A DNA stretch of 28,083 nucleotides from a virus (taxonomy: Duplodnaviria > Heunggongvirae > Uroviricota > Caudoviricetes), in IMG/VR virus record IMGVR_UViG_2802429242_000010, positions 1 to 28,083 of that record, one strand, 5' to 3'. The position numbers and the translations under genes were made by a program. The notes under the pieces were generated by a model. It ran no database searches, had not been told where the DNA came from, and was given only the letters and a program-made list of their open reading frames with translations. Below, piece after piece: positions 37 through 27,462 of this stretch (the stretch's first letter is position 1; each line of letters starts with the position of its first letter).

Positions 37-163
37 ATAGTTCGGCTGTATGTAGGGTACAGCTCGATGAATTTGTTTGACGCGCAATAGTGACAGATTT
101 GATTATCAATTCCTATTTTGTTCTAAGGATAAAACCTTAGGTTGTGATCATCCGCACAATCCC

Positions 164-406
164 TTAGTAACGCCAGCGGTCATAGCGCTGATATTTCGGC
201 ACTTTTGGTGCTTTAATCGTCTTGATTACCCACACTACTGCAATCGCCAACAGCAGCCACGGCAACAACTTGATCATCAATGCCAGCATACCGCCGAGGA
301 ACATAATGGCCGTCGCCACAACCAGCGCGGCGATAATACCCAGCAACGAAACACCAGTGACCATCAACATGACAAAAAAGCCAATAACGAAAAGTAGTTC
401 CAGCAT
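164..406 (-). CDS. pspG: Phage shock protein G (small inner-membrane protein)
   Basis: ORF 164..481 contains a sequence I recognise as PspG starting at the internal Met (MLELLFVIGFFVML...KYQRYDRWRY, 80 aa). Two hydrophobic helices. Sits next to dusA as in enterobacterial chromosomes. Confidence 0.85.
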   Translation of the reverse strand: MLELLFVIGFFVMLMVTGVSLLGIIAALVVATAIMFLGGMLALMIKLLPWLLLAIAVVWVIKTIKAPKVPKYQRYDRWRY

Positions 407-437
407 GATGTTCTCCCAAAAATGAAATCTCTTGCTG

Positions 438-458: not shown

Positions 459-541
459 AAACTAATATATTGATTTATCAAAGAAAACGCCCCGCGACCG
501 TGCGCAGGGCGTAGTGAATTTGACTACTTTATGGTGAAAAA

Positions 542-1579
542 TTAACGCTTGTCCGCCACCAGTTTGAGCGCGTGTTCCAGCACGTTAATATCGGCACCTG
601 CTTTATGGGCATTTTCACTTAAATAACGCCGCCACTGCCGCGCGCCAGGGATCCCCTGGAACAACCCCAACATATGGCGGGTGATATGACCGAGATACGT
701 ACCCTGGCTAAGCTCGCGTTCAATGTACGGATACATGGCTCGTACCACCGCCACCGGATCGGCATCGGTATCCGAGGAACCAAAAATCTCACGATCCACC
801 GCCGCCAGAATGCCGGGGTTTTGATACGCCTCGCGCCCGACCATCACACCATCCATATGTTGCAAATGCGCTTTAGCCTCTTCCAGCGACTTAATACCAC
901 CGTTAATCGACATCGTCAGATGCGGGAAATCACGCTTCAGTTGATAGACGCGCGGGTAATCGAGCGGCGGGATTTCACGGTTTTCTTTCGGACTTAAACC
1001 AGAAAGCCAGGCTTTACGCGCGTGGATGATAAACATCTCGCATTCGCCTTTGCCGGAAACGGTGTTGATGAAATCACAGAGAAATTCATAACTGTCCTGA
1101 TCATCAATGCCAATACGCGTTTTCACCGTCACCGGAATCGACACCACATCGCGCATCGCTTTCACGCAGTCGGCTACCAATTGCGCATTGCCCATCAGGC
1201 ACGCGCCAAACATCCCGTTCTGCACCCGGTCAGATGGGCAGCCAACATTCAGGTTGATCTCATCGTATCCGCGCGCTTGTGCCAGCTTCGCACATTGCGC
1301 CAGCGCCGCCGGATCGCTTCCACCCAACTGCAACGCCACCGGATGCTCTTCTTCACTGTACGCCAGGTAATCACCTTTACCGTGAATAATCGCCCCGGTG
1401 GTCACCATTTCGGTATAGAGCAACGTATTGCGGGAAAGCAGACGCAGGAAATAGCGGCAGTGTCTGTCCGTCCAGTCGAGCATAGGAGCAATGCTAAACC
1501 GAGAATTCCAGTAAACACCAGTTTTTTCAGGCATCACGCTGGTTTGATTAATTTTTTGTGTTTCATGATTATCGTGCAT
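542..1579 (-). CDS. dusA: tRNA-dihydrouridine synthase A
   Basis: 345-aa ORF with the conserved Dus/TIM-barrel core ([21 protein letters not shown], catalytic Cys region) that I recognise as enterobacterial DusA. Its 5' end directly abuts the integrase gene. Confidence 0.9.
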
Positions 1580-1667
1580 TTTTGAACATTTCAGGCTATT
1601 TTTCTCGCGTTAGGTTCCCGCACAGGTTCCCACGTTTTATGGGAACCCGAAATAACGAGGTCGTGTA

Positions 1668-2765
1668 ATGGCGTACTATAACATAGAGAAACGACTAAAA
1701 TCCGATGGCACACCACGCTATCGCTGTAATGTGATTATCAAAGAAAAAGGTGTTATCACTTACAGGGAAAGCAAAACATTCCCTAAACATGCCCATGCCA
1801 AAACATGGGGTACACAGAAAGTGATGGAATTAGATCTATATGGCATTCCATCATCAAATGCAGTCGACGGACTTACAGTCCGTGACTTACTACACAAATA
1901 TTTAAATGACCCAAATGCCGGAGGTAAAGCAGGCCGTACTAAAAGATATGTGCTGGAACTGCTTATGGATAGTGACATCTCCGCGATCAAACTATCCGAA
2001 CTGACAGAAAATGACGTAATTGAACATTGCAGGCTAAGAAACAACGCTGGTGCAGGTCCAGCAACAGTCAGCCACGATGTTAGTTATCTTGGCAGTGTTC
2101 TGGATGCGGCCAAACCTGTATACGGAATTAATTACACATCAAACCCGGCGAAAAGCGCTCGTCCATATCTACTTAAACTTGGTTTGATTGGTAAATCAAA
2201 CCGTCGTAATCGTAGACCAGCATCTGATGAACTGGACATGCTCATTGAAGGCCTTCAACAACGATCTACTCATAAATGCTCAAAAATTCCGTTCGTTGAT
2301 ATCCTCAAATTTTCTGTGTGGTCCTGTATGCGAATCGGAGAAGTATGCCGGTTACGATGGGAAGATCTCGACCAGGAACAAAAATCTATACTCGTAAGAG
2401 ACAGGAAAGATCCACGCAAAAAGGAAGGCAACCACATGAAAGTAGCCTTGCTTGGGGAAGCCTGGGATATCGTCCAACGACAGCCCCAAAAATCGGAATT
2501 CATTTTTCCATATAACAGCACTTCTGTTACTGCGGGATTTCAGAGGGTAAGAAGCAAATTAGGTATTAAAGATCTGCGATACCATGATTTGCGTAGAGAA
2601 GGGGCAAGTCGCTTATTTGAGGCTGGTTTTAGTATTGAGGAAGTCGCCCAAGTTACAGGGCATCGTTCATTAAACGTGCTATGGCAGGTATATACCGAAC
2701 TGTATCCGAAATCTTTACATAATCGTTTTGAAGAGCTCCAAAAGAGCAGAAATAAGACCTCTTAA
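1668..2765 (+). CDS. int: Tyrosine-type site-specific integrase (dusA-associated family)
   Basis: 365 aa. C-terminal catalytic region with R (RIGEVCRLRWEDLD), H-x-x-R (YHDLRREG) and the tyrosine region (GHRSLNVLWQVYTEL). Located directly beside the 5' end of dusA. Confidence 0.9.
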   Translation: MAYYNIEKRLKSDGTPRYRCNVIIKEKGVITYRESKTFPKHAHAKTWGTQKVMELDLYGIPSSNAVDGLTVRDLLHKYLNDPNAGGKAGRTKRYVLELLMDSDISAIKLSELTENDVIEHCRLRNNAGAGPATVSHDVSYLGSVLDAAKPVYGINYTSNPAKSARPYLLKLGLIGKSNRRNRRPASDELDMLIEGLQQRSTHKCSKIPFVDILKFSVWSCMRIGEVCRLRWEDLDQEQKSILVRDRKDPRKKEGNHMKVALLGEAWDIVQRQPQKSEFIFPYNSTSVTAGFQRVRSKLGIKDLRYHDLRREGASRLFEAGFSIEEVAQVTGHRSLNVLWQVYTELYPKSLHNRFEELQKSRNKTS

Positions 2766-2785
2766 CACTGTTTATCCATACAGTT
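2766..2785. promoter_or_regulatory. LexA (SOS) box 1 upstream of the dinI-like gene
   Basis: cACTGTttatccatACAGtt matches CTGT-N8-ACAG. Confidence 0.6.
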
Positions 2786-2793
2786 AAAAATAA

Positions 2794-2813
2794 TACTGTA
2801 TACAAACACAGTA
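2794..2813. promoter_or_regulatory. LexA (SOS) box 2 upstream of the dinI-like gene
   Basis: TACTGTatacaaacACAGTA is a close match to the TACTG(TA)5CAGTA consensus. Lies about 15 nt upstream of RBS AGAGGG and the ATG at 2827. Confidence 0.7.
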
Positions 2814-2826
2814 TAGAGGGACTTTT

Positions 2827-3075
2827 ATGCGTATTGAAATCTGCATAGCCAAAGAAAAAATGACTAAAATGCCAACCGGTGCTGTGGATGCGTTAAAGGA
2901 AGAATTAACCCGACGCATCAGTAAACGTTATGACGATGTAGAGGTGATCGTAAAAGCCACCAGCAACGATGGCCTTTCTATTACGCGCACCGCCGATAAA
3001 GATTCAGCTAAAACTTTTGTTCAGGAGACTCTGAAAGATACCTGGGAATCTGCTGACGAGTGGTTTGTTCACTAA
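2827..3075 (+). CDS. dinI: DinI-family DNA-damage-inducible protein (prophage copy)
   Basis: 82 aa, MRIEI...[16 protein letters not shown], which I recognise as DinI-like (DinI ends ...QETWESADDWFV). Preceded by two LexA boxes. Confidence 0.85.
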
Positions 3076-3242
3076 TTAACACGTAAAATCGGTAACGGCT
3101 GGAAATCATTCAATACTCGCACTATCGAAAGTTCGCCAGCCAGCCGCAGCACGTTCTTGCATACGACGTGGCTGCGGCTTCCAACATTAGACAAATAACT
3201 CTTTAAGTTGCCTTTAAATTAATACCAGCACCGCGCCGGATG

Positions 3243-3683
3243 TCATCTGGCCTGAACTGCCGGAGGCGTAGGCCATTCAATATCTGGAGCACTGGAGGTA
3301 TCAACCAGTTCCAGTGCGTCCAGATAATCCAGCCACAAATTATATTGCGCCAGTTCCTCACCTTTCAGACGACCAATAGCTGCTTTACCTGGCCATTGCC
3401 TGTTATTCATGTGCTCATTGGCAGTATCTATGCGCCGCTGACGCTCGTATTCTGCCATCTTTATCAGTTCTTCAGGTGCCAGTGGCGGAATATCACTCCA
3501 TACGGGATAACCATCATCACCCGCAATCCTCATTTTTCCCTCCGGTGGCTTCTGAAATGCAGAAAAAGTTTCTTCATCAACCTCCACGCCTTTTTCTGGC
3601 CATAACCCCACGGATTCATAATGTAATTTCAAAGCCAACGGATAGAAGGCGTTAGTTTTTGCATCATAAATATATTTGTTCAT
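3243..3683 (-). CDS. Tail fiber assembly protein (Tfa-like chaperone)
   Basis: 146 aa, directly downstream of the tail fiber gene. C-terminal region with the NLWLDYLDAL-type motif typical of Tfa proteins. Confidence 0.8.
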   Translation of the reverse strand: MNKYIYDAKTNAFYPLALKLHYESVGLWPEKGVEVDEETFSAFQKPPEGKMRIAGDDGYPVWSDIPPLAPEELIKMAEYERQRRIDTANEHMNNRQWPGKAAIGRLKGEELAQYNLWLDYLDALELVDTSSAPDIEWPTPPAVQAR

Positions 3684-3685
3684 TT

Positions 3686-4327
3686 TTATTTCCCTATTGC
3701 AATCCAGTTAGCGCCAGCACCCGTTCCGCCAGTACGAGAACTCATTAAATAAAATGCAAGTAGTCCGCCTCCTGCCGGAGTTGTCGCAAAGGCAGGGCAA
3801 TCTGTCGCACCGTTAATTGCACTGTCAAAAGACGTGGCAATACGATAACCAGATGTAAAAGGAATCGGGAAGTTAACAGTTGTTGGATAGCCGATTGGCC
3901 CTGCAATACTGACGCCAAACTGTATGATTGTACCATCCGGAAATTTCATCCAGCCTGGCCCCGACGTGAAGCTAGCCATATCCGGGATCTGATTTACCCC
4001 GGTTCCAACCTCCCGTTTTGCCGCTTCTCCCAAACCAAGGTTTTCGAGAGCCGTTTTCACCGTGCCGTCCGATTTGATATCGCCAAACGGATTTTTGCGG
4101 CTTAACAGTAGCGCACTAAGCGCGGTAAGCAGCTGGTCGTGCCGCCCCTTCTCCAGGCTGGCACCGGATGCCTCCACCACGCCGCAAAGCTCCTCCTGCA
4201 ACATGTCAAAGTAGTCATCATCCAGATCGGTGGCAGGTGTGCCGGTCTGGGGGTTACCACGGGTAAAACCGTTCTTACCCGCGCCGAACTTATCCTTCTG
4301 CGCGGTTTTCGTGTCTATACGATGCAT
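3686..4327 (-). CDS. Tail fiber protein (short, 213 aa)
   Basis: Position between baseplate genes and tfa. N-terminus [46 protein letters not shown] resembles conserved tail-fiber N-termini; Gly-rich C-terminal tip. Confidence 0.65.
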
Positions 4328-4330
4328 GGA

Positions 4331-4915
4331 TTACTCCGGATATTTAAAAATTACGTAGGTATGCGACGGGCAGAGTTTGTTAAGCACACACTCGACAACG
4401 GTGTCGCCCCAGATACGCAGCGCGGAATCACAGGGATCGCCACATGTCATCCAGGTGGTGTTGGTGGCAGCTGGCATGTTGACCTGCCAGTAATACCGCC
4501 ATTCCGGCGCGTTCACAGCGTCAGTACAGGCCGATGAGCAGGTGAACGTGCTTTTGTCGTATCGCGTGATGGTAGCGTCTGGTCTGCCCAGGGCAGCAAG
4601 CTGTGCAAGGTAAAAATCCTCATTGATGCCGCCCGCCAGGTTAACCTTCGCATCCAGTCGTTGCTGACGCTGGCGAAGGGTCTGTGTCCCTGCGGGAATA
4701 CATTCATCCGGCAGGCCGCACAGACGCTCCCAGCGATTTATCAGTTCGGTGGTGGTGCGCGGATCCAGCTCCCGCATCAGGGCATCCGCACGCTGATGAA
4801 CGCGGGTTAATGACGGTGCCGCACCGGCAATCGCCGGATCGCTGGCTGACCACGCCGGACCGGGCGGCAACAGTGCTGACAACAGACGGATGTAATCATC
4901 GTTTGTCACGTCCAT
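4331..4915 (-). CDS. Tail/baseplate protein (Mu gp48-like, DUF2313-type)
   Basis: 194 aa; position and overlap with the upstream baseplate J-like gene; family assignment from memory of Mu-like tail clusters. Confidence 0.6.
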
Positions 4916-5964
4916 GAAATCGCCCCCAGAACCGCCAGTTCATTTTTCGCAATGGTGATATTGTCCGCCGGAGCAAGCAACTGATGGCTGTATTCCCCGT
5001 TCGCACCGGAAATCGCTTCACTGATACGCGACACCTTCAGTTCTCCCTGCGGATAACCATCACGCAGCAGGAACGAACGCAACTCGGCGGTGATGGCAGC
5101 CCGTATTTCCGGTGTATCCGGCGTCACACGGATATGAAAATCCACCGTATGTGCCACCGGCCTGAACACATACAAATCAGAGCCTGCCACCGGGGCCAGT
5201 GGCTCGATATGTTGTCTTGCCGCCGTTTCCGTTGATTCTTCCGGAATGGGATTAATCAGGTCACTGCTGGCAATCATCACACCGACAGTTCCCGTTCCCA
5301 TCCAGTGACGGTATGTCCATGCGCGGGTAATACCGGGCACTTCTTTAGCCCAGACTACATAGTCCCCGTCAGCCCCGCCCTGCGGCGTCCAGTAATACCG
5401 CTCAATGACGCGGGCGCGCCACGTTTCCAGCTCTTCAGTATCAAATCCGCCTGTCAGGGTGTCAGCCACACCGGAAGACGGCAGACCATTCACCGGCGTG
5501 ACCAGGATTAATGCCGTACCGTCGTCAGCGTTACCGACCGCGCCTGCATTTGAGCAGGCGATCGGCACGCGCAGGACACCACCGGAGCTGGTTGCATCGG
5601 CAGTTGCAGTATACTGAACCAGGTCATCGCGCTGAATAACACTCCCGGCGGTCACCTTCAGGCCATCGCTGACACCTTCCCAGCGCATATACCCGCTGGC
5701 AGCCGTGGCCCCCTTGCGCGGACACCGTTTCATCGCAGCATGTCGCGCCAGCCAGGACTCATCGCACAGGTCAGGCAGCATGTTCATTGCCAGATAATCG
5801 ATGTACCCGTAAACCGTATGCAGCGCCGCCGCATACACCTTTGCCCGCACGTCTTCATCCATGCGCCGGAGCGTGTCGCTGACGTCCAGCCTGGCGAATA
5901 AATCGTTACGGAGCATACTGATATTTTCTGCCAGCGTCGGGCGCTGAAATTCACTGTCCGCCAT
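4906..5964 (-). CDS. Baseplate J-like protein (Mu gp47-like)
   Basis: 352 aa; size and position in the baseplate cluster, overlapping neighbours on both sides (translational coupling). Confidence 0.75.
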
Positions 5965-6379
5965 GCGTTATCGCACTCCACAGATCATCAAAAGAAATCA
6001 TTACCGGTCCGTCACGACGCCAGAGAGTGATACTGTTACCCAGTTCATTAATCCCGGTGCGGCGGATATCCAGATCAATACGGGACACCACGCCGTCATC
6101 AATCATCCATTGCAGGCATTCGCGGATATATCCCCTTACCGTCTGCACCAGTTGATTGGTCAGTTTGCTGCGCTGAAGCAGCCACAGTCGGGAGCCGTAA
6201 CGGTCATTCTGTACCGCAGGCCAGGTATCCCCCCACCATCCCATCGGGACGTCGGCATTGTCATCAGGCTCCGCCCGCCGCCAGGTGAACAGGGAAATCA
6301 CCACGGCGCGGGTCAGCGGATCCAGCGGTGCGCTGGCGCAGGTGCGTTTACCGTTCACCGTCAGCCACAGTTCCATCAT
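5951..6379 (-). CDS. Baseplate protein (Mu gp46-like)
   Basis: 142 aa; conserved position between the spike and baseplate J genes; 4-nt overlap with the upstream gene. Confidence 0.65.
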   Translation of the reverse strand: MMELWLTVNGKRTCASAPLDPLTRAVVISLFTWRRAEPDDNADVPMGWWGDTWPAVQNDRYGSRLWLLQRSKLTNQLVQTVRGYIRECLQWMIDDGVVSRIDLDIRRTGINELGNSITLWRRDGPVMISFDDLWSAITHGGQ

Positions 6380-6924
6380 GCCTCCATCGCTTTATCAGGT
6401 TTGTCGGTGTTACTGCCCTGACCGTTCTCTCTGTGACGATGCCCGTTATAGGCAAGCCGCATCGCTGACATGGTGGTACCGCCGGAGTCGCACAGGTCTT
6501 TCACCTGTCCTGTCACTTCCAGGTCCATTTCAAAACGTGCTTTAGGTGAATTACGAAACGTGATCGTTTTACCTGCACCGTCCACCACGATCCCCTCCCG
6601 GGTCAGTGTCACGGACTGCCCCTGATCGTCATAGACAGCCACCTCACCCGTCTGCAGCCCTTTCAGGCGGTAGCGCCGGTCCGACACCGTAACAACCACC
6701 GCATGAGAACGGTCGCCATCCGGAAACAACACCACCGCTTCCGCACCGCTGTTTGCCCTTGCGGTAAAACCGTAGGGTTCAAGATGTTCAACCCCGGCTT
6801 TGGGTTCACCTGCAATCAGGGACACATCCACGGTCTGACATTTCGTGGCGGCACTGATGCTTTTCACCACGGCCCGCCCAATCAGGCCGAGGAGTTGTCG
6901 CTGCATGGCTTCAATCGTCCTCAT
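6376..6924 (-). CDS. Baseplate assembly/spike protein (gpV / Mu gp45-like)
   Basis: 182 aa with beta-rich central region (VVVTVSDRRYRLKGLQTGEVAVYDDQGQSVTL) typical of gpV-like spike proteins. Confidence 0.7.
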   Translation of the reverse strand: MRTIEAMQRQLLGLIGRAVVKSISAATKCQTVDVSLIAGEPKAGVEHLEPYGFTARANSGAEAVVLFPDGDRSHAVVVTVSDRRYRLKGLQTGEVAVYDDQGQSVTLTREGIVVDGAGKTITFRNSPKARFEMDLEVTGQVKDLCDSGGTTMSAMRLAYNGHRHRENGQGSNTDKPDKAMEA

Positions 6925-8003
6925 CAGAACGGGTCCTCCTGTACTCTGGCTTTTTTCTTTTTCCGCGCGCCGGGGGCTTCGGGTTCAGGCAGATAAGCAT
7001 CAGGTGGGCCGACACGGATTTCCGTCAGGGTGCCGTTCTGGTCCTGAGTAAACGTGACTTCCGAAACAAGCAGTTCGGTATTGTCGAAACCACAGACCGG
7101 ATCAAAGACAATCACCCGCTGGTTGGGCTGCCACAGCGTACCGTTACCCTGTCGCCAGCCCTGCACCACATAGGTGGTTTCATCCGTCCGCGCCGCCCGT
7201 TGTCTGGCTTCAAAGTCCGCACGGGCAATACAGCCTGCCCCCGTAGCCTGCCCTGTCTGCCTGATATACATCGGACGGTAACGGGCAATAAATGCGTCCT
7301 CTGTGCGGGCCCGCAGCGCGGTGGTGGTGGCCTCACCGAAATCATCGTCGTTTCCGGCACGCTGCCCCGCCACCTGGTAAACAGAAAACCGCTCCCGGAT
7401 ACTCTTCTCCGTATCGCAGGAAAGGATGTTTTCCCCGAGTACCAGCGCAGTATGTGCCCGCGTTGAGCCAATACCGCCAATCACCAGCCTGCCGTGCGGG
7501 TCGTCGTAAGCCAGTGCCTGCTGCTGACCGAGTATTTTGTTGATTACCTCAATCACCGTTTCACCGTGATCAGGCTGAACATCAGGAATAACACCCGACG
7601 GCGCACCGCTGTTCACCACCTCAATGCCGAAAGGCGCAGCAAGCGCCTGCGCAATCTGCACCAGCGAGCGTCCGTTAAACTGTGTCGGTTCGGCTGCACA
7701 GTCAATCAGGTCAGCCGTCAGACTACGTCCGGCAATACCGGTGCTGACCGAACGGGAATCGTAACGAACGGGCGTCGCCTCCACCCAGCCGGTGATCACC
7801 AGCTCATCACCAATCAGCACTTCCACTTTTGAACCGTTTTTAATGCGCGGCTGAAGCGTGGTGATACCCTCATCTCCCGGCCACTGGCGGGTGATCTCCA
7901 CACTGAAATCCCGCGCCAGCCGTTCAATACCGGCACCGATGCGCACCGATGTCCAGCCATTCCACTCCCGGCCATTTACCCGTAGCGTGACATTGTCGTT
8001 CAT
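6924..8003 (-). CDS. Baseplate hub / tail protein (Mu gpP-like, P2 gpD-like)
   Basis: 359 aa; immediately downstream of the DNA circulation protein gene as in Mu-like tail modules. Confidence 0.65.
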   Translation of the reverse strand: MNDNVTLRVNGREWNGWTSVRIGAGIERLARDFSVEITRQWPGDEGITTLQPRIKNGSKVEVLIGDELVITGWVEATPVRYDSRSVSTGIAGRSLTADLIDCAAEPTQFNGRSLVQIAQALAAPFGIEVVNSGAPSGVIPDVQPDHGETVIEVINKILGQQQALAYDDPHGRLVIGGIGSTRAHTALVLGENILSCDTEKSIRERFSVYQVAGQRAGNDDDFGEATTTALRARTEDAFIARYRPMYIRQTGQATGAGCIARADFEARQRAARTDETTYVVQGWRQGNGTLWQPNQRVIVFDPVCGFDNTELLVSEVTFTQDQNGTLTEIRVGPPDAYLPEPEAPGARKKKKARVQEDPF

Positions 8004-9373
8004 TGCACTGGCACCTTCAGAGGGATCACCGGCACAAAGCCGGGATGCGTAATGGCATTACGCCGGATAATGTCCGCGTCACGCGCCGCGTTATCAAACC
8101 AGGTCGCCGCCAGCACCAGCGCGGGTAAAACCTCATCCGGTGTGCGCTGAATGATCCGTGCAGACTGTTCAAGGCGCGTGTTGATATCCGCATTCAGATC
8201 TGCTTTCACCCGGCGCAGCGCCAGAAACAGCGCATCGCTGGTTGTACGGGACAACTCCTTATCAATTGCCGTATTCAGTGTGTCGCGAATGTCAGTCAGT
8301 TCTTCCCACGTCGGCAGGTCAACCGTGTTTTTCACCGCCGGTGCATTGTTCAGTGCCGGATGCGTGACGGAAGGCCAGCCAGTGCTCTGCGCGGGTGTTG
8401 TTGCCTGCCCCACTGCGGAATTCTGCATCACCGCGGAAGTTGTTGGCGCAGGCAATCGGGTGACGGCATACGCCGCTTCGCTGATTGCGGTCGTACGAAG
8501 GGTGCTGGCAACCACGTTACGCTGCTGCGTCGCCGTGGCGGTGGTTTTACTGTCCGTTTTCCAGACGCCGCGCGGTTGTAGATCGCTGCCGAGGCTGACA
8601 CCGGAAAGCGTTTTGATCATGGTGACCAGGTCGCTGGCGTTGCCATAAAGGCGTTTCCCGGTACGCCACATTTTCTGCACCTGCTCAACGAAATTTTTGC
8701 CTGACGATGGCGGCGGCAGAAGTACCGAGATATCCCCCTGCAACAGCCTGGCGGCATCCGATACGGCAGAATCCACCACTTTCATCGCATCAGAAACATA
8801 CCCCAGCATTATGCTGGCATTACCGATAACGTCGTTCTGCACGAAATCCGCCACACCATCGATACTGAAACCGCTGAAGCTGTCACTGATGCAGTCATCC
8901 AGTGCAGAACAGGATGACATCAGCGTCTGCGCCGTCGCCGCACCTGATGTGGGGTAAGAGAGTTCACCTGCTTCGACAAACTTCAGGTCAAAGCGGACAA
9001 TACGCCCTTCACTTTTCGATGTGCTGACCCGAACTTCCCCGTCAACACAGACTTTCAGCTCACCATATGTCGGGTGGACAAGCGTGCCGGGACCGGGTTT
9101 ATTCAGCGCTTCAATCAGGCGATCGCGCTGGTCAAAGCAGTCATCTCCCACCACATAAGCTGTGATGGACGGGCGGAAAGTGACTTTTCCCAGATCTTCG
9201 GTATAGGGCTTGTCGCGGTTCGGGTATTCATGTGTTTCCACACGGCGACCGGTTCCCGCACTTTCTTCTTCAACCTTAAACGGCACACCTCGAAATGATG
9301 CTTCAAGTAGCTTTTCACGCCAGCCACTTCGAGAATCAGAGGATAGGTACGAAGAAATATGAGAAAAATCCAT
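8000..9373 (-). CDS. DNA circulation protein (Mu gpN-like tail protein)
   Basis: 457 aa; N-terminal region (SFRGVPFKVEEESAGTGRRVETHEYPNRDKPYTEDLG) matches the DNA-circulation N-terminal signature; downstream of the tape measure gene. Confidence 0.8.
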   Translation of the reverse strand: MDFSHISSYLSSDSRSGWREKLLEASFRGVPFKVEEESAGTGRRVETHEYPNRDKPYTEDLGKVTFRPSITAYVVGDDCFDQRDRLIEALNKPGPGTLVHPTYGELKVCVDGEVRVSTSKSEGRIVRFDLKFVEAGELSYPTSGAATAQTLMSSCSALDDCISDSFSGFSIDGVADFVQNDVIGNASIMLGYVSDAMKVVDSAVSDAARLLQGDISVLLPPPSSGKNFVEQVQKMWRTGKRLYGNASDLVTMIKTLSGVSLGSDLQPRGVWKTDSKTTATATQQRNVVASTLRTTAISEAAYAVTRLPAPTTSAVMQNSAVGQATTPAQSTGWPSVTHPALNNAPAVKNTVDLPTWEELTDIRDTLNTAIDKELSRTTSDALFLALRRVKADLNADINTRLEQSARIIQRTPDEVLPALVLAATWFDNAARDADIIRRNAITHPGFVPVIPLKVPVQ

Positions 9374-9385
9374 GGCGTCACCTCA

Positions 9386-9416
9386 AATAAAAACCGCGTG
9401 TAAACGCGGTTTTTTA
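9386..9416. terminator. Bidirectional intrinsic terminator downstream of the moron gene
   Basis: AAATAAAA-CCGCG-tgtaaa-CGCGG-TTTTTTATT: GC stem flanked by an A-run and a T-run, giving a hairpin plus U-tract on either strand. Confidence 0.6.
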
Positions 9417-9429
9417 TTAGGTAATAAAA

Positions 9430-17990: not shown

Positions 17991-19257
17991 TGGTTTTTCC
18001 CTCATCGTTTTTTGGGGGCTTAAAATCTCCTGCCGGGTTAGCAGCATTCACGCTTACCAGCATCTCGTCCAGCCCTTCAACCGGATTCATATCCTCAAAT
18101 GCGCGGGCCTCATTACGGCTCATCCATCCATCGGTAATAGCGAAGTGATAGAATTGCGCGCGCTCCTGCGGAGTTCCGCGTAAAAGCCCCGTCAGATTGA
18201 ACCTGACGTAATACCCGGCGGCTAACTCAGCGCGGGTAAACAAGCGACGGTTAAGCTCCTGCTCCCAGTTCGTCACCCACGGCATCATCGTGTAGCGGAC
18301 AAACTGAATCGCCTGCGCAGAAATATTGGAGAAGGTGGCTTTTTCGAGGTCATTAATCATGTGCGCAGGAATATTGAAAATACCGGCGATCATTGAACGG
18401 TTCAGTTTCATCATGTCAATGATCTGAGCGTCAACTGGCGACACAGTCAGTGCCTTGTAATCCAGATCGGCTGGCAGCAGCATGGTTTTGTTTTCCTGGC
18501 GGCGTAACGCCTGCGATGCCTTCTGCCACTGATCTTTAAGCCAGCCCCAGCTTTCCTTATTGAGTCCGCTTTTAACGGATACTATCCCCGCCGGACGGGC
18601 ATTACCGCTGAAGAAGCTTTCTGTGTACTTCTGACCGCTCATCCCCATGCCTATTGTTTCGGCATGTTGCATAATCGGACTCAGCCCCATCTTCTGATTA
18701 TTACCCAGCGCACGGATGTGGATCATATCGTCCGGACTGATCGCAAACGCCCCATATTCGTTGTACAAACCGTAGGTATATCGGCCACCAGTATTCATCA
18801 GCGTCGTTTCCCACGGCATACAGCAATCCAGGGATATGACTTCACCGCGACGATTACGTTTCACCCAGGTATACCCATTCCCCCAGCCAAGGATGTGACG
18901 TTGCTTCAGTTCGCGCCATTTGTAGCTGGTTTGCCAAGTATTGGGCTCATCATGAACCAGATAAAACGCAGGATGATCGCGTGCGGGTTCAACCTTCCTC
19001 TTGTGCCTGCGCATAACATGCAACGGCATCTGGGCAAGGCTGGAAGACAGGACATAGATACAGGAATACACCGCAGCCAGTTTCATCGCAGTCTCAGGAC
19101 TGACATAAACGTCTGCCCGGAACAGCCCATCAGTATCAACGGCATCCCCGGTTATCGGGGTGGAAGGATTCTCCAGTGATTTACTTCTGAACAGAGCATC
19201 AAGCAGCACGCGTCCCCCTTCTGACCATAGCCAGTGCGCCCACCAGCAGTAAAGCAC
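17983..19257 (-). CDS. Portal protein (HK97 family)
   Basis: 424-aa ORF as given by the track (starts on GTG). The true start is probably downstream (GTG near 19209 after AGGGGGA, or a later ATG), because the first ~17 codons overlap a translationally coupled small ORF. Confidence 0.8.
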   Translation of the reverse strand: MLYCWWAHWLWSEGGRVLLDALFRSKSLENPSTPITGDAVDTDGLFRADVYVSPETAMKLAAVYSCIYVLSSSLAQMPLHVMRRHKRKVEPARDHPAFYLVHDEPNTWQTSYKWRELKQRHILGWGNGYTWVKRNRRGEVISLDCCMPWETTLMNTGGRYTYGLYNEYGAFAISPDDMIHIRALGNNQKMGLSPIMQHAETIGMGMSGQKYTESFFSGNARPAGIVSVKSGLNKESWGWLKDQWQKASQALRRQENKTMLLPADLDYKALTVSPVDAQIIDMMKLNRSMIAGIFNIPAHMINDLEKATFSNISAQAIQFVRYTMMPWVTNWEQELNRRLFTRAELAAGYYVRFNLTGLLRGTPQERAQFYHFAITDGWMSRNEARAFEDMNPVEGLDEMLVSVNAANPAGDFKPPKNDEGKTNE

Positions 19258-19360
19258 CGGACAGCATCAGAGCCGGAGCCATACCAAACTGCAGGTAAAC
19301 CCCGCACGTAAGCAGGCCAAAACCAGCCAGCCCGATAACATCAGCAATTAGTGATTTCAT
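19199..19360 (-). CDS. Possible small membrane protein (53 aa) between terminase and portal
   Basis: Not in the ORF track (under 60 aa). ATG overlaps the terL stop (ATGA). Translation [53 protein letters not shown] has two hydrophobic helices. Fills the terL-portal gap. Confidence 0.3.
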
Positions 19361-21090
19361 AGAATTAAGAGATCATCGTCCGGATCAAGAGATGAGAGGA
19401 AATCGTCAGGTTCTTTGAGCATTGCCCGACCGATCGTCATAATCAGTGCAACCGCACCATCGATTTTGTTTTCCGCCTGCTCCTTGACGGGCTTCACTAA
19501 ATCATCGTTACCTGGCATGTTTTTGCCGACCACATTGCCGATACACCAGGTCATGATGGGATTGCCGTCATGATGAAAGCGTCCCGATTCAATCGCTGCT
19601 TCCAGCTCTTTCATCGGATCGGACATATTGGCGAAGTTCTGGACGATAGTGACGGGATTCAGATCTTCATCAGCAAGGTCATGTGACAGCCCGGTCGCCC
19701 CGAAGGGGTCGATGGGTGACTCACTGACCGGGCTGATTTTGTTCGCCGCTTTGGCCTCTTCGAGGATGTAGCGATAATCCACCTCTGCACCATCGGTAAC
19801 GGTCAGGACGCCCATTTCCACCCATTTCTGAAAGCGTTCGGCGGTCCGGCGATCTTCATTTTTCTCGACGCTGTACACCGTGTCATACGGTACCCAGAAA
19901 CGCGGGGCCACACTGTAGTAATGCGTTTTACCGTCAATCTCGCGGGTATAAAGTCGCGCCATGCTGTTCATATCCAGCTTACGCGCCAGGTCAAAGGCCA
20001 GAATGCACGGCTGCCCCTCGAACTGCTCAAGGGTCAGTGATTTATCCTCGCAGCTCTGCCAGCTCACCAGGTTGAAATACGCCGAACGCGCCGACACCCA
20101 GATATTGAGGTGTTTTGTTTTAAAGACGTTTGCCAGACGGGCGTTATTTTTCGCACGTTGCTGCTGGCTTAACAAAAACTCGCGATAAACCGACACACCG
20201 ATATTCGGGTTAGCTTTTTCAAGTATCTGCGGGTCGGTCCAGTCGTCGCCTTCGTCAACGGTATAGATGATCCCGAACAGTTCATCGTTGGGCACCGAGC
20301 CGTTGAGCATCTCGATGACTTCCCGCCGTTTGTCGTAGCACGGCCCCTCAATGTTGTACCCGGCGGTGGTAATGGCCCACATCAGTGGCTGGCGTCGCGC
20401 CCCCATCCCGGTAAGCATTGTGGTATAAAGCGCATCGGTGGCATGCTCGTGATATTCATCAACCACGGCACAGTGGGGTGATGAACCATCACCGGGGTTG
20501 CCGATCAGCGGTTCAAACCGCGCGCCATCCTCCGGACGGTTCATGTTTGAGGCGTTAACCTCAATCCCGAACGCTTCCGTCAGCATGGGTGTGCGTTTAC
20601 ACATCAGTCGCGCCGGACGAAAGACTTCCCACGCCTGTTTCTCTGTCGTGGCACCGGAATACACTTCCGCGCCAAACTCGTTATCACAGGCAAAACAATA
20701 CAGGGCAACACCGGCAGAGATTGCCGATTTGCCGTTCTTACGGGGGATTTCGGTATACACCTCCCTGAAGCGGCGCAGCCGGGAGCCTTTATTGACCCAG
20801 CCAAACGCACAGCAGATCACAAATAGCTGCCACGGCTCCAGCGTGATGGGCATCCGTTTGAATGCCCACTCACCCTTGGTGTGCGGCAACAGCTGAATAA
20901 ATTTCGCGGCCCGTTCAGCCAGGTCCTTGTCGAAGCGGTAACGAAACGACTTACTTTTTTCCGCCATCAGGTCATCAAGATGGCGCTGGCAGGCCTGAAT
21001 CACAAACTGGCAGGCCACAATCTTTCCGCGCACGACATCACGGGCATACTGATTGGCAGCATTTACGTTGGGGTAAGATTTCCGGCTCAT
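19357..21090 (-). CDS. Terminase large subunit
   Basis: 577 aa; N-terminal ATPase region and C-terminal nuclease-type acidic motifs; start overlaps the terS stop (ATGA). Confidence 0.9.
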
Positions 21091-21581
21091 GATTCGATGA
21101 TTTTCAGAAACGGGTTAGTGGCTTTCTTCTGCCCCGCCAGGCCAATCAGACGCTGGCGGCTGCTGGGGTCGAGTCCGAGCATTGCCCCCGTGCTGCTCAT
21201 CTCGGACTCCTGTTCTTTTTTGGCGGTCAGCTCCGGATTTTTGACCCTGCCGCCCATTGCGCCGGTGATGGTGTTGCCCTGTATGGCAATATTTTTCACG
21301 GCACGTCGCCAGAACTCATAGGCCACGCACCACCGCTCAAGCACCGCGAGGTCAGTCACGCACAGCAGGCCCTGACCGCAGAGTTCTTTGGTTGTCAGTT
21401 GCCACATGATCGTGGCGAGAGGGAGATCTTCTTCAGCGAACCACTCCGGTGGCTCAACACCTTTGATGGGCGTAAAAACAGGTTCATCTTTGTTCAGGGC
21501 TCGCTTGCCGGGGTTTCCGGCCAGCGCCTTGCGCGCCGTTGGCTTGGGGCGACGCCCGGAACGCCCCGCCGTTCCAGCCAT
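21087..21581 (-). CDS. Terminase small subunit (P27-like family)
   Basis: Basic N-terminus ([29 protein letters not shown]) typical of P27-family TerS. Start placed at ATG with AGGAG 8 nt upstream; the track start at 21590 is a GTG. Confidence 0.75.
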
Positions 21582-21590
21582 ATGCGGCAC

Positions 21591-21706
21591 TCCTGGTTAA
21601 ATTTCATTTTTCGCGGGTGTAAAAAAACGATGGGGCGGGCAGTCCGGAAGACGTCAGGTCACAGAGATTTGACCCGCCCCTCCCCTCAGACAGTTGAGAA
21701 TTATTA
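21591..21706. other. Candidate cos / packaging-initiation region between the HNH and terS genes
   Basis: 116-nt intergenic region containing the GC-rich inverted repeat GGGGCGGG (about 21632..21639) and CCCGCCCC (about 21673..21680). HNH-terS arrangement is characteristic of cos phages of the HK97 type. Confidence 0.35.
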
Positions 21707-22057
21707 TCACTTAAGTCGTTCACGGGCCGTCTTCGCCTTATGACACGGCCAGCACAGACTCTGCAGATTACAGTCGGCATCAGTGCCGCCATGCGCTTTA
21801 GGGATGATGTGGTCAACGGTTTTCGCCTCACGCACCACACCAGCACGCAGACATAACTGACACAGGCCTTTGTCACGCTTCAGGACACCCGCGCGGATAC
21901 TGTCCCACTTCGAACCATAACCGCGCTGATGACGGGATTGTCCTGGCTTGTATTGCTTCCAGCCCTCGCTTTTGTGGCTTTCGCAATAGCCTGACGGATC
22001 AGTCGTGGTATTGCGGCAACCGCGAAAACGGCAGGCTTTTGGGGTTCGTGGTGGCAT
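21707..22057 (-). CDS. HNH endonuclease (terminase-associated)
   Basis: 116 aa; N-terminal Cys cluster (CRFRGC...C) and HNH core (DHIIPKAHGGTDADCNLQSLCWPCHKAK). RBS GAGGGG 5 nt upstream. Confidence 0.85.
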   Translation of the reverse strand: MPPRTPKACRFRGCRNTTTDPSGYCESHKSEGWKQYKPGQSRHQRGYGSKWDSIRAGVLKRDKGLCQLCLRAGVVREAKTVDHIIPKAHGGTDADCNLQSLCWPCHKAKTARERLK

Positions 22058-22092
22058 TTATATCCCCTCTTTGGTGCACGCTTACAATGCGT

Positions 22093-22116
22093 AAAAAAGC
22101 CTCGCATTAGCGAGGC
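22093..22116 (-). terminator. Intrinsic terminator (minus strand) downstream of the 74-aa ORF
   Basis: Minus-strand transcript has GCCUCGC-uaau-GCGAGGC followed by UUUUUU (plus-strand A-run about 22093..22098). Confidence 0.6.
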
Positions 22117-22223
22117 TCGTTTATATCTTGAAGGTGAATACTTATTGTCTTATCTATCCACGGGAAACATTAAGATTATTACACCCGTTAGTTGGGAAAT
22201 AAAACAAAATGCAGGTGGTTTAT

Positions 22224-22448
22224 TTATTCTTTGCTGATTGCTTTCTGAATGGCATCGGCTAATGGTTCAATTAAGCCAATAGCTGCTTTTAATTCCTGTT
22301 CAAATTTTGCACTTGTAGCCTGACCACCTGCAGAAGAAAGTGAGGCCTTAACTAATTCAAGGGCAGCTTGAACAGCTATAACCCTCTGTTTTTGAGCTTG
22401 AGTTACAGGCTGAGCACCTATTCCTGAAGGGAAATAATTCTCTAACAT
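22224..22448 (-). CDS. Hypothetical small Ala/Gln-rich protein (74 aa)
   Basis: Good RBS (GGAGG, 5-nt spacing) and a terminator downstream; predicted helical, no recognisable family; in an AT-rich stretch. Confidence 0.5.
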   Translation of the reverse strand: MLENYFPSGIGAQPVTQAQKQRVIAVQAALELVKASLSSAGGQATSAKFEQELKAAIGLIEPLADAIQKAISKE

Positions 22449-22715
22449 TACAACCTCCGTATTAAAAAGTGAGGTTACACATTACCCTTAAGATTACTCT
22501 TAGTGAAGAGGTATCTCATAATTATCACCCTTACCAATAACGCTTGATGAAATTTGTAATGGACTGGCTCTTATTTCAACGCAACCACTTACCGCGCGCC
22601 AGATGCTTAACCTCAAACATTAGCAATGAGATGTTTAATCTGAATCCACTCCAGAAGTAATCACCACTCTGTCTACAGGGCCTGATGTGAAGGATGATGA
22701 GTAAAATTATCGCTA

Positions 22716-23177
22716 TCATCGAAGGCATTGCGTCCTGATGTACTCCTGCAGGTAGTTAACCTGTGCGGTTATCCTGTCGATTCCACTTCGGAGACGGTAA
22801 TAATTGAGTTCAGCATCTGCTGTAAGTCCTGGGCTTTCTCCATCGCCCATGCCGCTGGCTCCGGTCGTTGACTTTGCACAGGTGGCGGCGACTTGCAGGC
22901 GCTTACGCCCAGCAGAAACATCAGCACGGAGACTTTCGATAGTCGCGTTAGCATCAGCAAGCTCCTTTGTGTATCTGGCGTCAAGTTCTGCTACGTCACG
23001 TTGACGCTTCTGCATATCAGAGATAGTCGCCATAGCCGAATCTAATGCCATAGCATTCTCATCACGCTGCTTTTTGTATTCGATGGCTTTGCTGTGGTAA
23101 TAATTTGCTGAACAGATAAAAGAACCAATGACAGTAACGAAGAATGCAGCGATAACCAGCTTATAGCTCAACTTCAT
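22716..23177 (-). CDS. Rz: Spanin inner-membrane subunit (Rz-like i-spanin)
   Basis: 153 aa; N-terminal TM helix, coiled-coil periplasmic domain and C-terminal Cys; clearly similar to lambda Rz as I recall it (YKAQRD..., MQxRQRDVAxLDAxYTKELADA...). Confidence 0.85.
   Translation of the reverse strand: MKLSYKLVIAAFFVTVIGSFICSANYYHSKAIEYKKQRDENAMALDSAMATISDMQKRQRDVAELDARYTKELADANATIESLRADVSAGRKRLQVAATCAKSTTGASGMGDGESPGLTADAELNYYRLRSGIDRITAQVNYLQEYIRTQCLR
22769..22954 (-). CDS. Rz1: Spanin outer-membrane lipoprotein subunit (Rz1-like o-spanin), embedded in Rz in another frame
   Basis: Start at internal Met giving MLTRLSKVSVLMFLLGVSAC|KSPPPVQSQRPEPAAW...; lipobox V-S-A-C followed by a Pro-rich segment; fully inside the Rz gene in a different frame, as in lambda. 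Confidence 0.7.
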   Translation of the reverse strand: MLTRLSKVSVLMFLLGVSACKSPPPVQSQRPEPAAWAMEKAQDLQQMLNSIITVSEVESTG

Positions 23178-23637
23178 TTACCACCCCGCCAGCCTCTTTG
23201 AATCGGGCAATCAGGTCACCGATTTTATGTTCATACTGACCGTAACCAGCGCCCGGCAGTGAAGCCCAGATATTGCTGCAACGATCGATAGCCTGACGAA
23301 TATCGCCGCGATCAATCATCGGTAAAGCGCCACGCTCTTTAATCTGCTGCAATGCCACAGCATCCTGGCTTTTTGGAGAGAAGTCTTTCAGCCCAAGCTG
23401 CTTGCGGTAAGCATCCCACCAGCGTGAAAGAAGTTGATAACGGCCTGCAGCTGTTGATTTGAGTTTGGGGTTTAGCGTGACAAGTTTGCGAGGGTGATCG
23501 GAGTAATCAGTGAACAGTTCGCCACCAACAATAACATCATAACCGTGGTTACGTGTCGGTTGTCGCCCGTTATCCGTTCCTTCTGACCATGCCACCATAT
23601 CAAGGAAAGCTTTACGCTGGGAATTTAGTGCCTGCAT
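23161..23637 (-). CDS. R: Endolysin, lambda R-type lytic transglycosylase
   Basis: 158 aa, near-identical over long stretches to lambda R as I recall it (QRKAFLDM.AWSEGTDNGRQ.TRNHGYDVIVGGELFTDYSDHPRKLVTLNPKLKST.AGRYQLLSRWWDAYRKQLGLKDFSPKSQDAVALQQIKERGALPMIDRGDIRQAIDRCSNIWASLPGAGYGQ). Confidence 0.9.
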   Translation of the reverse strand: MQALNSQRKAFLDMVAWSEGTDNGRQPTRNHGYDVIVGGELFTDYSDHPRKLVTLNPKLKSTAAGRYQLLSRWWDAYRKQLGLKDFSPKSQDAVALQQIKERGALPMIDRGDIRQAIDRCSNIWASLPGAGYGQYEHKIGDLIARFKEAGGVVNEVEL

Positions 23638-23640
23638 AAA

Positions 23641-23967
23641 TTACTCCTTAGAGCCACCAAACTTATTACCGATTACTCGCATTGCAGCCCCACGAATAGC
23701 ATCGACCCCGATCAGCCCAACGCCGCCACCAATGGCAACAGAAAGAGATTTAGGCCATCCGACATACTCAAGAGCGGATGCAAAAGTCAGCGTCAGAGCA
23801 CCACAGAGCAAAATCTCGAGCGTTTTTCGTTTCCAGCCACCACCACCGCCAAAATAGGCAATACGTAAACCAGCCATAACGATCGACATAATCACTGCGC
23901 CCAGCGGTGTGTCTCCACGCCACCAGCTCTGGACCAACTCCAGCCAAGTATTTGGGTTATGAGGCAT
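23641..23967 (-). CDS. S: Holin (class I, lambda S-like)
   Basis: 108 aa, three predicted TM segments and charged C-terminus; immediately upstream of the R/Rz/Rz1 genes. Confidence 0.8.
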   Translation of the reverse strand: MPHNPNTWLELVQSWWRGDTPLGAVIMSIVMAGLRIAYFGGGGGWKRKTLEILLCGALTLTFASALEYVGWPKSLSVAIGGGVGLIGVDAIRGAAMRVIGNKFGGSKE

Positions 23968-24107
23968 TTGTAGTTATCTCTCACCTCGCTAATACAGCAG
24001 GTGCAAATTGAGGGAACATCGTGTACCGCAAATCAGAAGCGGAAACGTCAAAGAAGCCGAACCAATGGATAACTGCGGAATAGGCAAGGACCAACGAATC
24101 CCCAGCC

Positions 24108-24141
24108 CCAGAAACGACAAAACCCGCTCGACGGCGGGTTT
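24108..24141 (-). terminator. Candidate intrinsic terminator (minus strand) about 140 nt upstream of the holin gene, possibly a tR'-like element
   Basis: Minus-strand AAACCCGC-cgucga-GCGGGUUU followed by a U-rich tract (UGUCGUUUC). Confidence 0.4.
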
Positions 24142-24186
24142 AAGCTGTGTGGCGAAGTAACCACTCTTAACAGATTACAATGTTTT

Positions 24187-24215
24187 TTGCGTACGCGTTA
24201 GCATTTTCGTAAAAT
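24187..24215 (+). promoter_or_regulatory. Candidate sigma-70 promoter for the ATPase-methyltransferase cassette
   Basis: TTGCGT (-35), 17-nt spacer, TAAAAT (-10), about 30 nt upstream of the ATG at 24247. Confidence 0.35.
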
Positions 24216-24246
24216 ACATTACCTTGCAACCATTTCAGTATAAAAA

Positions 24247-26037
24247 ATGAGCACAGAATTAAAACTAAAGAAAATTATGGCATCGTCTAAAATTGAGCCA
24301 TTTATTAGACATATTCGTTTTCCTTTTTTTAAAAACCTTGCAGAGGGTAGCAAGATTGATTTTGAGTATCCAATTACAGCATTAGTTGGTCAAAACGGGA
24401 CCAATAAAAGTTCTGTTTTAAGAGCCCTATTCGGTTCTCCAAACAACTATTCTCTGGGTAGCTTATGGTTTTCTACAGATGTAGATGAGATTAAAGATGG
24501 TGGTCGTTCTAGATTTATTTATGGATATTATGACAAAGCTACTGATTCAATTGTTGAAGTAATTAAAACTCGAATCTCTAAAGAAAATGATCCTGATTAC
24601 TGGGAACCATCCAGACCATTAAAATCCGACAACATGGCTCCAATGCCTAGTACAAAAATCTCAACCAATCAACTAAGGACTAGGTGGAAAGCTATTGACA
24701 AAAATGTAATATATTTAGATTTCAGAGCAACTATCAGTGCATTTGATAAGTTCTTTTATCACTCTGATTTTCATACATACCCTAAGAAAGATTATCTTAG
24801 AAAACGCAGTCAGATGCTAAAAGACATTATAGATAACGATCTTAAAAAATATCAACCTCATAAAGGAAAAAAAGACAAGCTATTTGTTAACACTTTATTA
24901 GAAAAAAGTAAGGTAGAGGCAATCAGCAAGATTTTAGGTCGCAAATACACAAGCATCCGCCTTATTGAACATAGCTTATTCACTAATGACAAAGCTCCCA
25001 CAATTATTCTTCAATCAGAAAACTTAAAATATTCTGAAGCTTTCGCAGGCAGTGGGGAATTTGCTGTATCTATATTAGTGCATAAACTAATGGATAGCCC
25101 TGATGCATCTTTAATTCTGCTAGATGAACCTGAAGTATCACTTCACCCTTCTGCTCAATGTCAATTGATGGAATTTTTATCAGAACAAGCACTTAAAAAG
25201 AAACATCAAATTGTCATATCCACACATTCATCAACAATAGTAAAAGACTTGCCTAAAAATGCCATAAAATTATTCTGTCTGAATGATAAAGTAGGAAAGG
25301 TTGATGTTCTTCAAAATGTCAGCCCAGAAGAATCTTTCTTTATTCTTGGTGAACGCATTGATAAAAGAACCGTTATTGTAGAAGATCGGTTAGCGAAGAG
25401 GTTTGTAGAAAAGGCGCTTAAAGCGGGTGGTGAAGCATTATTAAACTCCTTCGAAGTAAAACATGTTCCTGGAGGAGCGGGAAGTATTCTTCAAACTTTG
25501 GCTGTGCCTTTATGTGTTGCCAATGTTAAAAACGTTATTTTCTTATTAGATGGTGACCAATCGAGAACTGATGATTATCCAACTTCTGATTCCATACCAG
25601 AAAATCAAAACACAAACCTTCAAAACATCATAAAAGAAATAACCAATCAAGATATAAAATTTAGTTGTGATGGTTCTAATGGCTCATCAAATAACAATCA
25701 AAAATACAAAATGCAAAGAAATTTTATCGATTTCATCCACGATAAAATTGCTTTTCTTCCTGTTTATACTCCTGAAGCATTTCTTATTGAGAATGTTCAT
25801 GGTGATTATAAAGAATATAAAGATCAAATCCCCAAAAACATTCAAGATGCTAAAGAAATCACCAAAGAACTTTGTAAGTTAGACACAGGGTTGGAGAACG
25901 TTACCAGTGACGATATCTTTGAAACACAAATCAGAATTCTTAATAAAATACCAAATAATCATGAAGTGTTAACAAAAACTCGAGAGTTGCTGCAAATCTT
26001 TTTAGATAATGATACTATCAGACCAAGAGTGAGGTAG
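24247..26037 (+). CDS. P-loop ATPase with Toprim-like C-terminal region (OLD / PARIS-like architecture); candidate ATP-dependent nuclease
   Basis: 596 aa. N-terminal Walker A (ALVGQNGTNKSSVL), ABC-like region (FAGSGEFA), Walker B (LILLDEPEVSLHP) and H-loop-like VISTHS. C-terminal half has Toprim-like acidic motifs (TVIVEDRLAKRF and NVIFLLDGDQ). Strongly AT-rich. Domain calls are by-eye motif recognition. Confidence 0.6.
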   Translation: MSTELKLKKIMASSKIEPFIRHIRFPFFKNLAEGSKIDFEYPITALVGQNGTNKSSVLRALFGSPNNYSLGSLWFSTDVDEIKDGGRSRFIYGYYDKATDSIVEVIKTRISKENDPDYWEPSRPLKSDNMAPMPSTKISTNQLRTRWKAIDKNVIYLDFRATISAFDKFFYHSDFHTYPKKDYLRKRSQMLKDIIDNDLKKYQPHKGKKDKLFVNTLLEKSKVEAISKILGRKYTSIRLIEHSLFTNDKAPTIILQSENLKYSEAFAGSGEFAVSILVHKLMDSPDASLILLDEPEVSLHPSAQCQLMEFLSEQALKKKHQIVISTHSSTIVKDLPKNAIKLFCLNDKVGKVDVLQNVSPEESFFILGERIDKRTVIVEDRLAKRFVEKALKAGGEALLNSFEVKHVPGGAGSILQTLAVPLCVANVKNVIFLLDGDQSRTDDYPTSDSIPENQNTNLQNIIKEITNQDIKFSCDGSNGSSNNNQKYKMQRNFIDFIHDKIAFLPVYTPEAFLIENVHGDYKEYKDQIPKNIQDAKEITKELCKLDTGLENVTSDDIFETQIRILNKIPNNHEVLTKTRELLQIFLDNDTIRPRVR

Positions 26038-26040
26038 ATA

Positions 26041-27081: not shown

Positions 27082-27091
27082 AAGCGGAGCC

Positions 27092-27445: not shown

Positions 27446-27462
27446 CAACTTTCTCCACCAAA

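Follow-up and report, generated by a model that had tools for sequence, protein, structure and literature searches.

An integrase gene lying immediately beside the start of dusA raises the question of whether a prophage has entered the 5' end of this host gene and, if so, which part of the gene now belongs to the phage and where the exchange took place. We addressed this in the window, which here means the whole stretch of 28,083 nucleotides that was analyzed. In the list of open reading frames, dusA (542..1579, minus strand, 345 amino acids) and the integrase gene (1668..2765, plus strand, 365 amino acids) both begin with ATG and diverge from starts separated by 88 nt (1580-1667), exactly as a preliminary description of this DNA had it. 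The product of 542..1579 is identified as DusA by profile matches of 580 bits (TIGR00742) and 560 bits (NF008774), and at a near-identical locus of E. coli 181.1 RefSeq carries both genes with an equal 88-nt gap. The interval singled out in that description, 1480-1667, extends from inside the att core delimited here (1476-1492) to the last base before the integrase ATG.

The comparisons of sequence assembled below make it very probable that 1476-1667 is the integrase-proximal attL of a temperate SfV-like phage, inserted by a dusA-associated integrase (DAI) at codons 30-35 of the dusA gene of Escherichia marmotae. The features concerned are as follows.

164..406, minus strand: pspG, host chromosomal gene downstream of dusA, 80 aa
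542..1579, minus strand: chimeric dusA open reading frame; codons 1-29 phage, codons 30-35 shared core, remainder to codon 345 host
542..1475, minus strand: host (E. marmotae) portion of dusA, matching empty sites of this species at 99.6-99.9%
1476..1492, no strand: attL common core, 17 bp, TCGAGCATAGGAGCAAT; the attP/attB identity block, dusA nt 88-104, codons I30-D35
1476..1483, no strand: minimal crossover block TCGAGCAT; in E. coli backgrounds, attP, attB, attL and attR share no other stretch
1493..1579, minus strand: phage-borne dusA' 5' end, codons 1-29, near-identical to the int-adjacent segment of SKA5 and mEp460
1580..1667, no strand: spacer between int and dusA', phage, identical or nearly so in free phages
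1613-1619 (plus), 1625-1631 (plus) and 1641-1647 (minus): three GGTTCCC repeats of the int-proximal arm, candidate arm-type Int sites
1668..2765, plus strand: dusA-associated tyrosine integrase, 365 aa (PF00589, E 7.5e-21)
2827..3075, plus strand: dinI-like gene (PF06183), constant companion of the int module
1476..28083, no strand: prophage body, an SfV-like myovirus (tail, head, terminase, lysis, moron, Q), continuing beyond the window

Host chromosome and prophage body

The chromosomal side of the window was placed by comparison with sequenced relatives. Window positions 1-1480 are 93.3% identical at best to E. coli across all 5426 complete genomes, and the chromosomal part as a whole is 91-93% identical to the retrieved Escherichia species representatives. 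An exact 24-mer search of GTDB representatives returned no match, and a DusA-based scan of them gave 80 loci, none of them more than 93.3% identical to this part. Exact-protein look-ups of DusA and PspG retrieved four prophage-free loci of E. marmotae type that are 99.6-99.9% identical to window positions 1-1492; the 80-residue PspG itself led to E. marmotae and E. coli loci, where it is likewise encoded beside dusA. E. marmotae is the species once named Escherichia cryptic clade V. We assign the host to this species because of the loci matching at 99.6-99.9%, one of which, CP025979.1, belongs to a genome from a study of E. marmotae (PMC6650469). In all four of these empty sites dusA has 331 codons and is directly divergent from zur.

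On the other side of the junction, the integrase gene is followed by the dinI-like gene, which also follows int in 181.1, H10407, mEp460, SKA5 and all E. marmotae loci, and then by tail, head, terminase, lysis and Q genes that occupy the minus strand to the end of the window. The far junction had been placed beyond the window, and phage genes do reach its last base, with the Q antiterminator gene at 27092-27448. The prophage is colinear with the 38-40 kb prophages of 181.1 and H10407, and SfV and vB_EcoM-720R4 cover 71-75% of window positions 3200-24000 at ~97% identity. SfV and SfIV share its structural module, from terminase to baseplate, at ~97% identity over 63-71% of the same interval. 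Both of these phages have a different integrase and a different attachment site, tRNA-Thr. The dusA module of the window prophage represents a mosaic swap relative to them.

The contig PTTC01000027.1 (GCA_002966085.1), the probable source of the window, is 100% identical to its first 4400 nt and ends at the same point (28083). As the window thus appears to end where this contig ends, the break in the assembly falls within the prophage, with attR on another contig. A two-gene moron occupies 24247-27081 between the lysis genes and the Q antiterminator, on the plus strand and hence opposite to them. One of its genes encodes a 596-aa OLD/Gabija-like AAA ATPase, for which the best PADLOC match is HEC-04, followed by ATPase-Toprim, and the second encodes a C5 cytosine methyltransferase; no such pair is annotated at the equivalent position in the 181.1 and H10407 prophages. 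The moron may be a defense or self-protection cassette. mEp460 and the prophages of 181.1 and H10407 each have a gene for a PrtN-like excisionase at their far end, and by analogy one is presumably present in the unseen part of the window prophage. Between the PrtN-like gene and attR, the 181.1 and H10407 elements carry a toxin-antitoxin-like gene pair with a Panacea domain (38735-39783 and 1032-2020, respectively, in locus coordinates), which forms their extreme far end.

The dusA junction and its attachment core

Integration into the 5' coding end of dusA was the central proposal of the preliminary description, which suggested aligning this region with dusA of prophage-free strains. When this alignment was run, identity dropped at 1492: the four same-species empty loci match positions 1-1492, after which homology stops, and the 5' end of the window dusA is not identical to that of prophage-free chromosomes up to the integrase gene. 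The free phages mEp460 and SKA5, in which int lies in mid-genome, give the reciprocal picture, as their intact attP matches the window from 1476 rightwards and is unrelated to it leftwards. A corresponding step is seen against the E. coli 181.1 lysogen, from which the window differs by 7-8 mismatches per 100 nt up to base 1460 and, past this base, by zero mismatches until 2201 and by three in all of 1461-3200; identity to the 181.1 prophage over 1400-3200 is 99.7%. Given that the host part is from E. marmotae and the prophage end is 99.7% as in 181.1, the step marks the junction, and the module circulates across Escherichia species.

The core was delimited by aligning the window with attB from two E. 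marmotae loci and attP from two free phages. The resulting 17-bp identity block lies within the first ~100 nt of dusA, where the attL core had been predicted, at nt 88-104 of the open reading frame. Its two edges are sharp, in that bases 1474-1475 (AG) are of the attB type and not of the attP type (TA), and base 1493 onward is of the attP type. The earlier view that the core cannot be defined from this window does not hold, as the attP of free phages and the attB of empty sites together define it without recourse to the far junction. Four-way comparisons of ETEC H10407 with K-12 and of 181.1 with SK1144 yielded the minimal crossover block. In attP this block sits within a dyad that can be read directly from the sequence, TCCTAT-CGAGC-ATAGGA, which suggests core-type half-sites around an overlap of 5-7 bp. 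The extended semi-conserved att region reads C-GT-C-TCC--TCGAGCAT-GG-GCAA.

A repeat search of the window did not turn up the dusA 5' segment as a direct repeat, in keeping with the position of attR outside it. The architecture of attR can be seen in the comparators. In H10407 it consists of the other phage arm, TCGAGCAT and a displaced K-12-type 5' end, which is labeled in RefSeq as a truncated tRNA-dihydrouridine synthase, and in 181.1 it consists of the phage arm, TCAAGCAT and a displaced native-type 5' end identical to the SK1144 empty site. The attL of 181.1 reads TCGAGCAT (locus 1380-1400) and its attR TCAAGCAT (39920-39930), the latter being the native-type attB allele, and this G/A difference falls inside the minimal block, that is, in the putative overlap region.

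A further claim, that the prophage supplies a replacement 5' end for dusA, is borne out by the free phages, as mEp460 and SKA5 both carry a dusA-like segment beside int in an intact attP; in SKA5 it is annotated as a 'tRNA-dihydrouridine' mini-ORF. The DNA of window positions 1484-2800 is 98.9% identical to SKA5 and 98.3% identical to mEp460, and dusA codons 1-29 bear no relation to the native 5' end in E. marmotae, the leader of which is MSAESQTAYPAHRFS. The fusion is in frame and leaves an intact open reading frame of 345 codons, in which the phage part ends ...NSRFS and continues as IAPMLD. DusA profiles match residues 19/27-344 of the chimeric protein, and because these matches begin only at residue 19/27, the replaced part is mostly non-conserved leader, along with the residues RFS that open the first conserved strand. 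The exchange recreates the RFSIAPMLD strand, and the chimeric DusA thereby agrees with the argument of Farrugia et al. 2015 (PMC4482086), according to which insertion leaves the TIM barrel with its first beta-strand. Candidate start codons of dusA are M1 at 1579 and M16 at 1534. At the level of sequence, these comparisons show that the annotated DusA N-terminus in the lysogen genome is phage-encoded.

The preliminary description had regarded the dusA promoter, along with the first few dozen codons, as probably derived from the prophage. The codons stood up to comparison (codons 1-29), and the promoter is proposed from necessity, because the geometry of the insertion requires one. A consensus scan of 1400-1800 returned no sigma-70-type promoter or terminator, and manual reading gave only weak -10/-35 candidates. 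We infer that the chimeric dusA would be transcribed from a phage-borne promoter in the 1580-1667 spacer, a segment that must also contain the translation signals of int.

The same spacer holds the three GGTTCCC repeats, which lie inside 35 nt; the 28-kb window has 10 copies of this motif in all against 3.6 expected. On the other attP arm, GGTTCCC-AATA-GGCTCCC is found at a distance of ~45-60 nt from the core. In Phytobacter and Kosakonia, relatives with integrases ~82% identical keep both the GGTTCCC motif and its layout, and a Pluralibacter relative with an integrase 70% identical keeps the layout with the motif GTACACC/GGACACC/GGTGTAC. A conserved layout with a motif that co-varies on both arms fits arm-type integrase-binding sites such as those of heterobivalent (lambda-Int-like) integrases, for which the GGTTCCC repeats are therefore candidates; they are also candidates for an operator of int and dusA'.

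The mechanism that we propose would begin with a phage whose attP carries a 40-codon dusA-like mini-ORF (dusA') beside int. Recombination in the core common to phage and host (TCGAGCAT, which in E. marmotae lengthens to 17 bp) would join phage codons 1-29 and the sequence upstream of them to host codons 30-345, and since the fusion at the core is in frame, an intact dusA of 345 codons persists. The native 5' end and promoter would be displaced to the far junction, attR, beyond the window. This attR would be expected to comprise the arm ...GGTTCCCAATAGGCTCCCACAAAG...AAAAACGGTACATCCTA, the core TCGAGCATAGGAGCAAT, and CGAGAAACGGTGTGCGGG.../CGAGAAACGGTGTGCGGGATAAGCGG... (the native 5' end encoding MSAESQTAYPAHRFS). 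Excision of the window prophage, probably with the participation of a PrtN-like excisionase, would then restore the native dusA.

The integrase and its relatives

The Pfam match on the integrase covers the catalytic domain only (residues 189-346). In an alignment with XerA (5hxy), residues R222, H306, R309, H332 and Y342 fall on the catalytic positions, and the RHRH-Y set is thus present. DAIs were defined by Farrugia et al. 2015 (PMC4482086) as integrases of elements that use one site in the dusA 5' end, lie between semi-conserved repeats of 21 bp and provide the gene with a new 5' end. Among these traits, the window has the integrase at the dusA 5' end and the insertion in a semi-conserved att sequence of ~21 bp, and the imperfect repeat at attR with its displaced 5' end is present in 181.1 and H10407, which carry an equal module.

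The integrase is identical at 362 of 365 residues to that of ETEC H10407, a catalogued DAI (Table S1 of PMC4482086). The same table places the H10407 prophage at 4684277..4723914, and its published end, 4723914, corresponds to dusA nt 104, the insertion point found here. This 39.6-kb prophage shares with the window the gene order dusA/int/dinI/tail, the insertion point, the replacement 5' end and the semi-conserved att repeats. It differs in its host (E. coli rather than E. marmotae), in its identity block (8 bp in a K-12-type background rather than 17) and in its cargo, the window having the ATPase and C5 methylase moron and no invertase beside dinI.

Among isolated viable phages, mEp460, SKA5 and 1720a-02 have integrases 98-99% identical to that of the window. 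The free genomes of mEp460 (NC_019716), which was named as a DAI hit (PMC4482086), and SKA5 (OR670062) contain, like the window, the core, dusA', the GGTTCCC repeats, int and dinI, together with the other arm; SKA5 also has SfV-like tail and head genes in common with the window. They differ from it in being unintegrated, and mEp460 in being a lambdoid siphovirus. Experimental evidence comes from the Stx2d phage 1720a-02 (Balasubramanian et al. 2019, PMC6328086), which was shown to integrate 100 bp into dusA of Citrobacter rodentium, with a 7-base core conserved in attL, attR, attP and attB and an in-frame, phage-borne dusA' supplied to the host gene. Excision of the circle restores the native dusA in this system, and an int deletion mutant loses excision (PMC6328086). 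The int/attP module of 1720a-02 is 97.5% identical to window positions 1484-2800, although the phage itself, which is lambdoid and Stx-converting, has a host of another genus and structural and cargo regions unrelated to those of the window. The closest characterized relative of the DAIs is the Rci shufflon recombinase of IncI plasmids (PMC4482086), and the mEp460 integrase is annotated as INT_Rci (cd00796). Unlike the DAIs, Rci inverts shufflon segments, has a C-terminal extension and does not integrate an element into dusA.

The int-dinI-attP module is carried by a wide range of elements, including SfV-like myoviruses, the lambdoid phage mEp460, the Stx2 phages 1720a-02 and phiSTEC1575-Stx2k, and elements with Peptidase_S74 tailspikes. 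One element of the E. marmotae set combines the same module with SLATT_5 and reverse-transcriptase genes, and at another E. marmotae locus a stump of int and truncated dinI adjoins an AraC-type gene. As one and the same module occurs on very different elements, dusA is a shared integration hot spot across Escherichia species.

Alternative readings and the dusA alleles of E. coli

Three other explanations of the locus were weighed. The integrase could belong to an element inserted elsewhere, for example in a tRNA gene, and merely lie beside an unmodified dusA. The sole general point for this is that many integrases target tRNA genes, to which may be added that the structural module is SfV-like and that SfV uses another integrase and site. 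It is refuted by the end of empty-site homology inside dusA (1492), by the dusA-like segment within attP and by the reciprocal junctions of the comparators, and we give it practically no weight. The divergent 5' end could also reflect allelic variation or import by homologous recombination, unrelated to the integrase, and E. coli does have two very different dusA 5' alleles that occur without an adjacent integrase. Against this, the breakpoint falls, with single-base precision, on the attP/attB identity block, and the 5' segment is linked to int in packaged phage genomes. Leader type and integrase also go together among the 80 Enterobacteriaceae species loci: all five DAI-adjacent loci have a long leader of the MH.N.E... 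phage type, and the 71 loci with the short native leader (M..ES... type) include none with an integrase within 3 kb. These observations contradict the reading, which is highly improbable.

The third explanation accepts the insertion and holds that the prophage is cryptic and no longer mobile, the dusA-int junction surviving as a frozen scar and no longer working as an attL. The window shows only one end, decayed versions exist at the same site (the int and dinI stump of one E. marmotae locus, and a 10.9-kb 'phage remnant' in O157:H7 EC4115 listed in Table S1 of PMC4482086), and the 2.8-kb moron breaks the late region at 24247-27081. The integrase gene is nevertheless intact and 98-99% identical to those of viable phages, the structural, lysis and Q genes are all intact in the 26.6 kb seen and colinear with full-length prophages, and the attL core and arm repeats match the free-phage sequences exactly. 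On this balance, immobility seems unlikely, and an attL of a temperate phage at dusA codons 30-35 is the reading that we retain.

The survey of leaders also bears on the reference allele of E. coli. K-12 DusA has a long leader, MHGNSEMQKINQTSAMPEKTDVHWSGRFSV, which is of the MH.N.E... type as in phage dusA', and its 5' segment is 82.7% identical to phage dusA' over 98 nt. Compared with the short native 5' end of the sampled Enterobacteriaceae, the K-12-type sequence diverges exactly at the DAI core (K-12-type locus 1785-1990 against native locus 2785-2990), and K-12-type loci have the DUF2713 genes yjbL and yjbM between dusA and zur. The K-12-type allele is found in 4302 of 5426 complete E. 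coli genomes (~79%) and the native allele in 1123 of 5426, with essentially no overlap. A displaced native 5' end is absent in K-12 between zur and yjbM, where native homology resumes only ~75 nt upstream of zur. We somewhat favor the view, drawn from these alignments, that the K-12-type 5' end is a fixed fossil of an ancient integration by a DAI element whose integrase and cargo have decayed; alternatively, the phage may have captured dusA' from a K-12-type host.

Four of the 80 species loci (in Kosakonia, Superficieibacter and Silvania) have a long phage-type leader and lack an integrase in the 3 kb upstream. These could be additional DAI fossils, or may represent lineages whose native leader gave rise to phage dusA'. 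Judged by eye, the open reading frames in the 3 kb upstream of these loci resemble zur, an outer-membrane-like protein and small toxin-like genes, none of them obviously of phage origin.

If the K-12-type allele is indeed such a fossil, the leader of the reference DusA (its first ~32 codons), its promoter and yjbL/yjbM would be of mobile-element origin, and phages entering K-12-type hosts would now recombine with a site that has already been 'converted'. This is only a mildly novel lead. The dusA junction itself is a correct, ordinary and already well documented finding, a known and common arrangement in view of the work of Farrugia et al. 2015 (PMC4482086), the work on 1720a-02 (PMC6328086) and the presence of the dusA-int arrangement seen in the window in 741 of 5426 complete E. 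coli genomes. A description of the mechanism appeared in 2015 and an experimental demonstration, for a near-identical module, in 2019; current understanding is unchanged. The value of the present analysis for annotation is that the prophage boundary is fixed to 1476-1492 and that the predicted attR sequence is usable for joining contigs. For the biology of these elements, it indicates that an int/attP module 99.7% identical to that of an E. coli prophage operates in E. marmotae, the chromosome of which is only ~93% identical to that of E. coli.
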